Of a stretch of DNA of 40,711 bases, positions 27,530 through 28,970 are shown in pieces. Origin of the DNA: a virus. Both the position numbers and the translations under genes were made by a program. The stretch is taken from UHGV virus genome UHGV-1370040, one strand, 5' to 3'. The first letter of the stretch is position 1. Each line of letters opens with the position of its first letter. Below the pieces are notes generated by a model. The model was not told the origin of the DNA. It did no database searches and worked only from the letters and a program-made list of their open reading frames with translations.

Positions 27530-28492
27530 GTGAAAAAGATTAAAAAAATTCACTTCTTTAAATTTGATATGTATAGATTAGGTTTAGACTCAAAAGGAAA
27601 TTCAGTTCAAGAATTTTTAGATATAAAATCTAAATTAGTAATTCTTGACGAAATCGTCAAGAATAAATTGAATTCAAATTCTTCAATAAAAATACTTAAA
27701 GATTTGGATAAACCTAATGGACAATCAGCTATTTTAGAAGTAATTACAAATAATGATTCCTATGTATTTGGAAAATTAGGAAGAGAACATGATATTAATC
27801 AATTCCAAATTAGGAAAAGTGACACTTTGGAACCAAGAAATATTAGTAAAGCTACTGATGAGTTATTTGAATCATTTTCTTATTTTTTAATCAATAAATC
27901 TACTTTCGCTGTGTCATATATAAAAGAAAGCACTGCGCCTAGTATCTCTTATCTTTCAGCATTGATTACAAATGAATTTAAAAGTACTGATAAAATATGG
28001 GGTTGGATTGAATGTTTAGTTGATGAGAATGCAATAAAGGCGTTGAGCGGAAAAGATATAATAGGAACTATGTATTATGATTTAACGATACCGCCAGAAT
28101 ATACCAAAAAACTTTTAGGGCTTACTGAAAGAGAGTATGATCTTTTACAAAATCAAAAAGGTATAAAAGTCGGAGTGACATTAAAAGCTGAAAAAAGGAA
28201 AACATCAGTTTTTGAAAATCATGAAAATGCCGAAACATTTTTTAAATCAGTACGAAAAAAAGGATTGAACTTTAAAATAAAAGCTAGAGATGACAATGAT
28301 GAGATGATGCAAGACTTTAAACTAGTGGATAATCCGTTTACAAAAAATGTCAATTTTGAATACAATGTAGGCAGTCTGACAGATGTAAAGTCTATTCAAT
28401 CTTCAATAGAAGATCAATTATGGTATAAGTCTCAACAAAATGAACAAGCAATATTAAGATATATTGGAATTGAGAATGACGTTTTAGAATAA
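27530..28492 (+). CDS. hypothetical 320-aa cytoplasmic protein, no recognisable family; very AT-rich moron gene (GTG start after AAGGAG)
   Basis: Long ORF with its own promoter. Codon usage and composition stand out from the flanking phage genes. Confidence 0.6.
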   Translation: MKKIKKIHFFKFDMYRLGLDSKGNSVQEFLDIKSKLVILDEIVKNKLNSNSSIKILKDLDKPNGQSAILEVITNNDSYVFGKLGREHDINQFQIRKSDTLEPRNISKATDELFESFSYFLINKSTFAVSYIKESTAPSISYLSALITNEFKSTDKIWGWIECLVDENAIKALSGKDIIGTMYYDLTIPPEYTKKLLGLTEREYDLLQNQKGIKVGVTLKAEKRKTSVFENHENAETFFKSVRKKGLNFKIKARDDNDEMMQDFKLVDNPFTKNVNFEYNVGSLTDVKSIQSSIEDQLWYKSQQNEQAILRYIGIENDVLE

Positions 28493-28520
28493 TAGTTTTT
28501 TGAAAGAGGGTGACGTTATT

Positions 28521-28970
28521 ATGAAAGAATACTATAAAGACAATACTTTTACTTCTATTGTATTTATGGCTTCAACAGCAATAATTGTTGTTATCCTTAT
28601 CTGTCAAAGAGAATCATTACCTAAAGTGGTCGATTCTGATAGTTTATACAATCTATTAACTGTTAACACAATTTTTTCTGGTTTTTTATATTCAATGCTT
28701 GGTAACATGGTTGAATTTAACTCAAGAGAAGAGATACAAGAAAAAGATACTGCAGGTTATATTGATAAGTATTATAGCCCAGTATACTTTGGATTGTTTT
28801 ATCTTATTATGGCTATCTTGTTGGAAATTTTAATTTTATTCTTTAACGTAACCCTTTTATTGAAGTATCTTTTATTTATACAAAAAGCATTTTCTTTAGT
28901 AGGTATAATATACTTTGTTATTTCAACACTTATGCTAAGAAAAATGATAAATAAAGTAAGAATGAAATAA
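28521..28970 (+). CDS. small integral membrane protein (4 predicted TM helices), partner of 27530-28492
   Basis: Hydrophobic segments FTSIVFMASTAIIVVILIC, TVNTIFSGFLYSMLGNMV, VYFGLFYLIMAILLEILILFF, FSLVGIIYFVISTLML. ATG after AGAGGGTG. 28 bp downstream of the 320-aa gene. Confidence 0.6.
   Translation: MKEYYKDNTFTSIVFMASTAIIVVILICQRESLPKVVDSDSLYNLLTVNTIFSGFLYSMLGNMVEFNSREEIQEKDTAGYIDKYYSPVYFGLFYLIMAILLEILILFFNVTLLLKYLLFIQKAFSLVGIIYFVISTLMLRKMINKVRMK

Follow-up and report, generated by a model that had tools for sequence, protein, structure and literature searches.

The DNA from position 27,380 to 29,004 of the virus genome UHGV-1370040 (the window, 40,711 nt in all) is a self-contained unit made up of a promoter, a leader, two genes, and a terminator, and is probably a mobile cassette for phage exclusion (abortive infection) of the RexAB type. 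Its carrier is a phiFL-like temperate phage of Enterococcus faecalis. The sequence-only reading had seen in the pairing of a cytoplasmic with a multi-TM protein the layout of a membrane-acting abortive infection system. This layout gains support because the first protein is a remote homologue of lambda RexA and because the leader is common to Kiwa and PADLOC candidate systems; by analogy, the function of the cassette would be of the RexAB type.

The two genes lie where they had been placed from the sequence. ORF A (27,530 to 28,492, + strand) starts with GTG, has an AAGGAG Shine-Dalgarno (SD) sequence 9 nt 5' of its start, and encodes a predicted cytoplasmic protein of 320 aa. ORF B (28,521 to 28,970, + strand) encodes a predicted four-helix membrane protein of 149 aa from an ATG at 28,521, which is preceded by GAGGGTGA and stands 28 bp past the stop codon of ORF A; an alternative TTG start at 28,500, giving 156 aa, is also in the mechanical ORF list. 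The A+T-richness that had been noted is borne out, with a GC content of 27.4% for the cassette compared to 34.0% for the whole window and 34-37% for the flanks. Only 0.5% of segments of the same size are as GC-poor, all of them at one other locus, an Abi_2 gene (11,074 to 12,036), and nowhere in the phage is GC lower than in the cassette and at this locus. The PHROGs matches agree with the proposed siting between arpU and terS, as an ArpU-like activator gene is found upstream (26,687 to 27,154; phrog_248, E=8.7e-47) and terS downstream (29,764 to 30,225; phrog_309, E=7.5e-74), followed by terL.

The promoter is a sigma-70-type site on the + strand (27,380 to 27,408), with a -35 box TTGATC (27,380 to 27,385), a 17-nt spacer, and a -10 box TATAAT (27,403 to 27,408), and scores 10/12 against the consensus. 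As a bare consensus match it is not significant, since 11 such sites were found in the scan against 12.5 expected, but both boxes are kept in the homologous cassettes of five other prophages; it is this conservation that speaks for the unit being self-promoted, as had been claimed. At the other end there is an intrinsic-terminator-like hairpin and T-run (28,976 to 29,004, + strand), the hairpin itself (28,976 to 28,999) having a 10-bp stem with 4 GC pairs in the terminator scan. Other cassettes likewise finish with a hairpin and T-run, the sequence of which is not conserved. The idea of a discrete transcription unit holds in that the cassette has its own promoter and terminator. It had been thought to end with the tRNA-Lys(UUU) gene (29,031 to 29,106) and a terminator, but the terminator-like hairpin comes before the tRNA; a second one is located 3' of it (29,167 to 29,190). 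The tRNA is part of the backbone of the phage and not of the cassette, because in the phages phiFL1C and SEsuP-1 a related tRNA directly follows the position equivalent to 27,371.

Similarity to the phiFL backbone stops at 27,371, and similarity to two homologous cassettes, L001 and L007, begins exactly at 27,380. On the right, similarity to L001 ends at 29,004 and to L007 at 28,973. The edges of the mobile unit thus appear from these alignments to be the promoter at the left and the terminator-like hairpin at the right. The expectation of variable cargo in this slot was borne out by the relatives, being empty in phiFL2A and filled with unrelated genes in phiFL1C and SEsuP-1. The cassette has no counterpart in the sister phiFL phages and is found in unrelated Enterococcus and Carnobacterium prophages, where homologous cassettes occupy one of two cargo slots, either after ArpU (between ArpU and terS) or after the lysin. 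The pair is not a core component of these phages, and ORF A shows no homology to structural or metabolic proteins. No cassette match was found by tblastn in 50,697 deposited phage records. The ORF A family comprises 208 representatives at 50% identity, one member being listed for 953 assembly-collection blocks. By its distribution, the cassette is accessory cargo in a variable slot, and the pair is transferred together from one unrelated prophage to another.

ORF A had been described as holding no known domain and as candidate novel. For routine annotation this holds true: neither ORF A nor ORF B has a Pfam or PADLOC match at E<=1, PHROGs returned nothing usable for either (a sole match to phrog_23674, E=0.015, function unknown), and an hmmsearch of PDB sequences with the ORF A profiles gave no match. 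It does not hold for remote homology, where ORF A leads to RexAB, the oldest known abortive infection paradigm. In a profile-profile comparison the ORF A family matches RexA with 96.9% probability (E=1.4e-10, 229 columns), and negative controls gave no more than 0.8%; against a single RexA sequence the probability is only 44% (E=2e-4). The predicted structure of ORF A has the RexA fold, an RdgC-like split globular domain with an inserted dimerisation domain. This model is of moderate quality, with a pLDDT of 69.6 and about 50 in the part matching the RexA dimerisation domain, and global TM-scores to the RexA structure 8TWQ are 0.36-0.42. RexA, RdgC, and kinetochore proteins have this fold in common, as seen in the fold search and as published (PMC11077077). 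The part of ORF A aligned to RexA excludes its first 57 or so residues, ORF A being 40 aa longer.

The alignment sets the ORF A motif K251-A252-R253-D254 against R219-A-K221-D of RexA, in which R219 and K221 are needed for DNA binding and for exclusion (T4rII) (PMC11077077). Of the 99 members of the ORF A family, 88 have K or R at position 253, 89 have A or G at position 252, and 49 have a basic residue at position 251. Strict membership of the Pfam RexA family (PF15969) was not found, there being no match for ORF A at E<=1 and, at E<=0.01, none for any of its 99 relatives. By profiles and a structural model, ORF A is a remote sequence homologue of lambda RexA with a RexA fold.

There is also a relationship to a second family. 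ORF A itself does not match Pfam DUF6731 (PF20505), falling below the gathering threshold, but DUF6731 is matched by 8 of the 99 ORF A-family members and by a related cluster, c7 (best E=4e-34), which in turn matches the ORF A family at 97.9% in the profile-profile comparison. By sequence, ORF A can be placed as a relative of DUF6731 outside the current Pfam model. No function is assigned to DUF6731 and no mention of it was found in the literature searched. The more distant relatives of ORF A (clusters c3, c7, c11, and c15) are each paired with a small multi-TM protein.

An ORF B homologue of 148-164 aa with four helices is present immediately 3' of the ORF A homologue in every intact locus, with junctions of -17 to +45 nt. 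The four hydrophobic helices that had been proposed are present as four long helices in the AlphaFold2 model of ORF B (9-28, 39-67, 82-108, and 114-148; pLDDT 78.8), although only three are strongly hydrophobic by Kyte-Doolittle and helix 2, with its three Asn, is moderately so. In an alignment of 20 homologues, no part of the protein is more conserved than helix 2 (YNLLTVNTIFxGFxYxMLGNxVEF). The central loop between helices 2 and 3 is also highly conserved (R69...D76.AGY.D.Y.SP), the C-terminal tail has a charge of +5, and the predicted topology is N-in/C-in.

Comparison of ORF B with a RexB profile by hhalign gave a probability of 0.2% (E=0.32), the profile being thin at 5 sequences, three of them from loci of divergent RexA homologues. 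The best path in this non-significant match is collinear, AGY pairing with YGY and E..LFF with ELG.LFF. A search of contigs for RexB diversity returned almost only lambda DNA, 100% identical, in unrelated assemblies. ORF B has no match to Pfam RexB (PF15968). In a BFVD fold search with ORF B, lambda RexB was absent and nothing reached E<=1e-3, the best match being an uncharacterised Siphoviridae protein (E=0.03); a 165-aa protein of phage Sbash was a weak match at rank 15 (TM 0.59, E=1.2). ORF B may be called RexB-like by size, gene order, and predicted topology, four-helix membrane bundles being generic.

The likeness to lambda RexA/RexB (PF15969, PF15968; 8TWQ) lies in the gene order, a cytosolic protein of approximately 280-320 aa followed by a four-TM protein of approximately 145-150 aa, in the DNA-binding motif [KR]-[AG]-[KR]-[DEN] of RexA and ORF A, in the nearly identical positions of the RexB helices (approximately 7-26, 44-66, 82-106, and 113-136) and those of ORF B, and in prophage carriage. 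The two differ in that the hosts are Enterobacteria for lambda and Bacillota for the cassette, and in that lambda rexAB is situated in the cI immunity region and transcribed from PRM, whereas the cassette is free-standing with its own promoter, leader, and terminator. An immunity-region location applies to lambda and to four of the five described Rex-like systems. The cassette, between ArpU and terS here and after the lysin in relatives, is not beside a CI-like repressor, the repressor module (14,885 to 15,717, - strand) being 12 kb away.

By the count of a 2026 paper, five Rex-like systems have been described, none of them from Bacillota (PMC12894663). RexABpp (PP_5643/5644, from a P. putida prophage), Sbash gp30/31, and CarolAnn gp44/43 resemble the cassette in their remote relationship to Rex, four-TM partner, and prophage carriage. 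These were recognised only by HHpred or by structure, with a relationship to RexB undetectable there too; the validated RexBpp also fails the RexB homology test (PMC12894663). Likened by description, the evidence for the Rex relationship of the cassette is equal to or better than that for these three (PMC12894663). They differ in having been validated experimentally and in lying near the immunity repressor, while the cassette is a predicted system and sits elsewhere in the phage. Within Sbash gp31's central cytoplasmic loop, R70A and D73A abolish defence (PMC6426596), and the R...D loop between helices 2 and 3 of ORF B is a positional match to this R70/D73 loop.

The cassette also resembles systems that lie outside the described Rex group. 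PDC-M67, a predicted system and PADLOC candidate, includes PDC-M67B, which is the TM partner of the ORF A-related cluster c11 (E=4e-113). DUF6731/PDC-M67 loci and the cassette are alike in having the leader and a protein of about 320 aa with a TM protein; ORF A reaches no PADLOC model, that of PDC-M67 included. Kiwa is similar in its cytosolic protein of approximately 315 aa and four-TM protein of approximately 190 aa; in these phages its cytosolic gene comes first, and it has the same leader and slots. The cassette is not Kiwa itself, there being no KwaA or KwaB match for ORF A or ORF B in PADLOC or Pfam, a probability of 0.2% between the KwaB cluster and the ORF A family, and no KwaB among the top PDB fold matches. 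CBASS and Pycsar, considered for their layout, were rejected on the lack of PADLOC and Pfam matches and of any cyclase or CD-NTase among the PDB fold matches.

Between the promoter and ORF A is a structured 5' leader RNA of approximately 115 nt (27,412 to 27,529, + strand), which is conserved and covarying and combines a terminator-like hairpin with an anti-SD helix. The long helix pairs 27,420-27,438 with 27,498-27,519, such that the anti-SD UCCUU (27,420 to 27,424) is paired with AAGGA of the SD (27,515 to 27,519), and encloses the inner terminator-like hairpin (27,441 to 27,481) with its run of 8 U (27,475 to 27,482). The minimum free energy is -32.7 kcal/mol (z=-5.6), and 0 of 200 shuffles fold equally well. 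A consensus structure was obtained with RNAalifold from 8 leaders. In the covariation analysis, 92.5% of cells are paired and two-sided changes occur in 16 of the 26 pairs; no shuffle out of 500 gives values as high, and the slid controls give 0.12-0.20 compared to 0.341. With the covariance model, the leader here scores 121 bits, and the range over 66 phage loci is 61-130 bits. A pattern search for the leader gave 67 matches, of which four (L104, L109, L113, and L121) are false, having no covariance-model match. There is no second copy within the window by this model, and the Abi_2 gene is without this leader. The leader has no match in Rfam 15: at E<=1, only the tRNA is found between 27,150 and 29,500, with two chance sRNA matches elsewhere, and over the whole window only the two tRNAs reach the gathering score.

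Approximately 20 different cassettes follow the leader, Kiwa, PDC-M66, and PDC-M67 among them. A complete Kiwa system (KwaB 2e-134, KwaA 4e-49) is found behind it, and for at least 8 of the types of cassette that it precedes there is no Pfam or PADLOC match. Several roles for the leader were set aside. A leader peptide does not fit, as the short ORF ATGATTATGTCTGCGTAA (27,425 to 27,442) is not conserved and its ATG is missing in L007 and L008. An RNA antitoxin, as in type III TA-like systems, was judged unlikely given that the leader precedes unrelated proteins, and an ArpU-dependent late promoter was ruled out by the half of the copies that follow the lysin. A closer likeness is to abiD1 of Lactococcus lactis, in which a promoter-proximal terminator is followed by a structure that sequesters the RBS, there is very little basal expression, and translation is activated by a protein from the phage that infects (PMC2661086). 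Activation by cold is likewise a mark of this type of leader. Likened by description, both elements are present in the cassette leader, as a terminator-like hairpin (27,441 to 27,482) and as SD sequestration (27,420-27,424/27,515-27,519). The abiD1 TIR differs in being 76 nt, AU-rich, weakly structured, and attached to one gene, compared to the longer, stable, covarying leader of approximately 20 cassettes.

In RexAB-type systems, exclusion of a heterologous phage takes both genes, the membrane is depolarised or growth is arrested, and overexpressed RexA triggers RexB. By analogy with lambda RexAB, Sbash gp30/31, CarolAnn gp44/43, and RexABpp, the cassette would be transcribed from its own promoter in the lysogen. 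Most transcripts would end at the leader hairpin and U-run, and in the read-through mRNA the SD of ORF A would be sequestered. Through this proposed termination and sequestration, ORF A would be kept at a low level compared to ORF B, whose ribosome-binding site is separate. Upon infection by another phage, ORF A, as a dimeric DNA-binding protein, would sense a phage cue, for example a protein or a DNA-protein intermediate of replication or recombination, and engage ORF B at its conserved cytoplasmic loop, whereupon ORF B would open or oligomerise into a channel. The membrane would then be depolarised, ATP would fall, growth would stop, and the infection would abort. The leader may also make expression infection-inducible, as for abiD1. 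ORF A would thus be the sensor and ORF B the effector.

In Kiwa, KwaA is the sensor and KwaB the DNA-binding effector. The roles in the cassette could likewise be reversed, although this is rather unlikely: ORF B would sense attachment or envelope perturbation, or sequester ORF A, and the DNA-binding ORF A, once released or activated, would act as the effector by blocking replication of the phage or its late transcription, with no depolarisation. The true Kiwa behind the same leader has the same order, with KwaB first and the TM protein KwaA second, and ORF A has kept the RexA DNA-binding motif. Of the described Rex-like systems, Butters gp30/31 has a cytosolic RexA-like protein as its effector, restrained by the membrane protein (PMC12894663). 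However, the membrane protein is the effector in the other four of the five (PMC12894663), ORF A has no detectable relationship to KwaB by profile, Pfam, PADLOC, or PDB fold, and the most conserved element of ORF B is a helix with a polar face (N44, T47, N49, and T50) that would suit the lining of a pore. A sensor ORF A and an effector ORF B are preferred, by analogy.

It is improbable that the cassette is not primarily for defence, with ORF A modulating the lysis-lysogeny or late-gene decision of its own phage and ORF B an accessory acting in superinfection exclusion at DNA entry or in holin-like timing. Lambda RexA does have a RexB-independent role in the lysis-lysogeny switch, its DNA binding being not simply correlated with exclusion (PMC11077077), and the cassette is immediately 3' of the late activator ArpU. 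Against this, closely related phiFL phages function without the cassette, it is found behind the lysin as well, at a distance from any regulatory module, it has been transferred among unrelated Enterococcus and Carnobacterium phages, and it has its own promoter and terminator and the same leader and slots as bona fide defence systems. Least probable, by a little, is that only an ancient RdgC-like DNA-binding fold is held in common with RexA and that the pair stabilises the prophage as a toxin-antitoxin or addiction module or as a moron without a role in defence. The occurrence of this fold in RdgC and kinetochore proteins (PMC11077077) would allow this, and a toxic gene would fit with ORF A being tightly repressed through the leader.

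A wider interpretation, in which a RexAB-type exclusion cassette is one of many under common control, can be put forward tentatively. The leader may be an undescribed riboregulatory module, widely common to phage defence cassettes of Bacillota, that acts through its terminator and SD sequestration as an 'off-until-infected' switch. What opens it would be a conserved signal of infection, for instance an RNA-binding protein of the phage, an antiterminator, or a shift in translation or temperature. It may also be a homologous handle for the swapping of cassettes between the two slots. The superfamily of RexA-like and DUF6731 proteins, together with their varied four-TM partners, might then form a single large clan of Rex type among the phages of Gram-positive bacteria.

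Abortive infection has RexAB as its founding example. If the Rex-type interpretation is true, a very divergent clan of this type is common in the temperate phages of Enterococcus, Listeria, and Carnobacterium, to which Pfam, PADLOC, and PHROGs are blind, and DUF6731 and the PADLOC candidate PDC-M67 gain a mechanistic hypothesis. The leader is a handle for searching the phages of Gram-positive bacteria for defence cassettes, known or unknown, much as in the P2/P4 hotspot approach, and would be a sequence beacon for new defence systems if it is indeed a switch. It makes testable how toxic abortive infection systems stay silent and yet ready. As E. faecalis is a target for phage therapy, exclusion systems carried by its prophages bear on phage host range.

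The window is the complete, permuted genome of a phiFL-like temperate phage of Enterococcus faecalis. Tail genes and an amidase (1-10422) are followed by a tRNA-Met (10852-10927), an Abi_2 gene (11074-12036, plus strand), the minus-strand integrase and ImmA/HTH module (12665-15717), early genes, RecT among them, and the ArpU-like late activator (26687-27154). The cassette (27380-29004, plus strand) lies between this activator and a tRNA-Lys (29031-29106), 3' of which are a 76-aa phrog_1202 gene, terS, terL and the portal gene.

Two ORFs, placed exactly as in the sequence-only reading, make up the coding part of the cassette: the 320-aa ORF A (27530-28492), which begins with GTG, and the 149-aa ORF B (28521-28970), which begins with ATG. 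They are separated by 28 bp. The A+T richness noted in the sequence-only reading is borne out by a GC content of 27.4%, against 34.0% for the window, as is its failure to recognise a domain: neither protein has a Pfam or PADLOC match at E<=1, which also places ORF A outside strict Pfam RexA membership. The cassette had been described as directly followed by the tRNA-Lys and a terminator; a terminator-like hairpin (28976-28999) in fact comes directly 3' of ORF B, ahead of the tRNA. The tRNA itself belongs to the backbone, since phiFL1C and SEsuP-1 have a related tRNA immediately past the equivalent of 27371. The arpU-terS slot does vary in sister phages, as had been anticipated, being empty in phiFL2A and holding unrelated genes in phiFL1C and SEsuP-1.

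The cassette is a discrete mobile unit, carried as cargo. In blastn comparisons, the phiFL backbone matches up to 27371 and again from 29039. Two homologous cassettes, one in another E. faecalis prophage (L001) and one in a prophage of Carnobacterium divergens (L007) whose backbone is unrelated, match from exactly 27380, the -35 box, to 28973-29004, the terminator. In L001, a common E. faecalis prophage type, the cassette (5852-7477, corresponding to window 27380-29004) is downstream of a tRNA-like backbone segment (5719-5830, corresponding to window 29083-29193), whereas the window cassette is upstream of the tRNA. These opposite positions suggest separate insertions, or rearrangement within one slot. 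Homologous cassettes occupy two slots, one between a late regulator (ArpU-like or sigma-like) and the terminase and the other at the prophage end, behind the lysin. The close ORF A clusters (n=22), all annotated as hypothetical, are in E. faecalis, E. faecium, E. hirae and Carnobacterium; none of 50,697 deposited phage records encodes ORF A. Every intact locus has a hydrophobic gene of 148-164 aa directly 3' of the ORF A homologue. A 99% identical ORF A copy in IMGVR_UViG_3300045988_008774 (L052, 1923-2705) is broken after 260 codons, which reflects either a frameshift or pseudogene, or an error of assembly.

The Abi_2 gene (320 aa, AbiD/AbiF-like, PF07751, E=8.6e-39) is a second defence-type gene. 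It occupies the post-lysin cargo slot, between tRNA-Met and integrase, and its locus, with a GC content of 26.9%, is the sole other segment of the window as AT-rich as the cassette. Genes between the integrase and the repressor module are often expressed in lysogens, and the position of a 287-aa ORF there (13993-14856, minus strand; no Pfam match) can fit a superinfection-exclusion or further defence gene. Directly downstream of arpU, a perfect 14-bp inverted repeat, ATCGAAAGTCAAAG (27221-27234) and CTTTGACTTTCGAT (27276-27289) with a 41-nt spacer, is part of the conserved backbone common to phiFL phages and could be a regulatory site or the arpU terminator.

ORF A is RexA-like in fold and homology. 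Its AlphaFold2 model (13 sequences, pLDDT 69.6) is confident in the N-terminal half and falls to about 50 over residues 160-290. In a Foldseek search of the PDB it matched lambda RexA (8TWQ; E=5e-8 and 1e-7, probability 1.00), followed by E. coli RdgC (3.5e-3), with no other match below 0.05. The global TM-scores to 8TWQ reach only 0.36-0.42, which is expected when two domains are joined by a hinge and the second is weakly modelled. An exhaustive profile search extended the family to 208 representatives. Compared with 25 PF15969 RexA sequences, a 99-member alignment gave 96.9% probability (E=1.4e-10); the 229 matched columns are collinear and pair ORF A 58-314 with RexA 42-277. Against the single lambda RexA sequence the probability was 44% (E=2e-4), and unrelated proteins of about 320 aa reached at most 0.8% against either profile. 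RexA R219-A-K221-D is needed for DNA binding and T4rII exclusion (PMC11077077), and aligns with ORF A K251-A252-R253-D254. Among the 99 family members, position 253 is K/R in 88 and position 252 A/G in 89; eight match Pfam DUF6731, a family without assigned function.

The ORF B model (20 sequences, pLDDT 78.8) has four long helices (9-28, 39-67, 82-108 and 114-148), and the hydrophobic segments of lambda RexB (144 aa) nearly coincide with them in position. The C-terminal tail has a charge of +5, which predicts a cytoplasmic location for the two termini and the central loop, as has been proposed for RexB and for Sbash gp31 (PMC6426596). Conservation is greatest in the polar-faced helix 2 (YNLLTVNTIFxGFxYxMLGNxVEF) and the central loop (R69...D76.AGY.D.Y.SP). 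The conserved region of Sbash gp31 is its central loop, where either R70A or D73A is enough to abolish defence (PMC6426596). No homology to RexB could be demonstrated (hhalign 0.2%; RexB absent among the matches in a viral fold search), so ORF B is called RexB-like solely for its position, size and topology, a limit shared by RexBpp of P. putida (PMC12894663). Lambda rexB DNA at 100% identity was also found on short contigs (L015-L044) from assemblies of Paenibacillus, Shewanella, Desulfovibrio, Kitasatospora, Capnocytophaga and other unrelated organisms, most likely as lambda control-DNA contamination.

Between the promoter and ORF A is a 115 nt leader (27412-27529) that is better conserved among cassettes than the genes. 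It folds at -32.7 kcal/mol (z=-5.6), its UCCUU (27420-27424) pairing with the ORF A Shine-Dalgarno AAGGA (27515-27519) within a long helix of 27420-27438 with 27498-27519. An inner hairpin (27441-27481) with an 8-U run at its end resembles an intrinsic terminator. An RNAalifold consensus of eight leaders recovered the same helices, with compensatory changes. A degenerate pattern matched 67 IMG/VR contigs; the covariance model found 66 full-length loci at 61-130 bits, rejected four pattern matches as spurious and detected one copy in the window, at the cassette and not at the Abi_2 gene. Across 52 distinct sequences, in an alignment itself fitted to the covariance model, 92.5% of cells pair and 16 of 26 pairs have two-sided changes; none of 500 shuffles reached the observed values, and register-shifted controls gave 0.12-0.20 against 0.341. 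Rfam 15 has no match to the leader, which is possibly a new RNA element; its closest precedent is lactococcal abiD1. It is located almost exclusively after ArpU-like genes or after the lysin (of 65 loci, 21 have an ArpU-like gene and 34 a lysin within 2.5 kb upstream), and also occurs in deposited Listeria and Enterococcus phages. Two records of about 40 kb (PQ554527.1 and PQ283533.1), 'Acinetobacter phage D2SVT' and Enterococcus phage vB_ElaS_B1578, have an Enterococcus-type leader at near-equal coordinates and equal identity; D2SVT may have been assigned to the wrong host, or the genomes may be near-identical.

Of the 67 pattern loci, only 9 have an ORF A-family gene behind the leader. The others have about 20 further first-gene clusters, nearly all of 300-345 aa, and the next gene usually encodes a multi-TM protein of 145-210 aa. 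These cassettes include complete Kiwa (KwaB 2e-134, KwaA 4e-49), the PADLOC candidate defence systems PDC-M66 (HipA-like kinase plus partner) and PDC-M67 (PDC-M67B 4e-113), an NA37 nucleoid-associated protein and DUF6731 proteins (4e-34). Four clusters, c7, c3, c15 and c11, are remotely related to ORF A (97.9, 95, 85 and 74%), each with a small TM partner of its own. The canonical Kiwa order is KwaA-KwaB; behind the leader it is reversed (L074, L084, L086, L096, L098, L111 and L123, all IMG/VR contigs), matching that of the RexA-like/TM pairs. At least five first-gene clusters (318-363 aa; L060/L091/L092/L112, L061/L066/L082/L100, L071, L107 and L115) have no Pfam or PADLOC match and are candidate unknown defence cassettes; in the L061 and L107 types, proteins of 486-523 aa with C-terminal TM helices follow.

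The cassette resembles RexAB in fold, homology, motif and partner, and differs in strict Pfam membership, RexB homology and immunity-region location. A literature search of incomplete coverage found no Rex-like system in Enterococcus and no paper mentioning DUF6731 or describing the leader, all of which is absence of evidence only. The roles of ORF A and ORF B might be reversed, as in Kiwa or the Butters gp30/31 pair; alternatively, the genes might function in the phage's own lysis-lysogeny switch, or form a non-defence addiction module. By analogy, a RexAB-like mode of action is preferred. Sensor-triggered membrane depolarisation has been proposed for the systems of lambda, Sbash, CarolAnn and P. 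putida (PMC6426596, PMC12894663). In a RexAB-like cassette, the promoter would drive transcription in the lysogen and the leader would keep ORF A scarce, setting a low A:B ratio because the anti-Shine-Dalgarno helix acts on ORF A only. ORF A, as a putative DNA-binding dimer, would sense an infection cue and activate ORF B via its cytoplasmic loop; ORF B would then depolarise the membrane and abort the infection. Excess RexA triggers RexB in lambda and P. putida (PMC12894663), and infection-induced release of ORF A translation would therefore be an attractive trigger.
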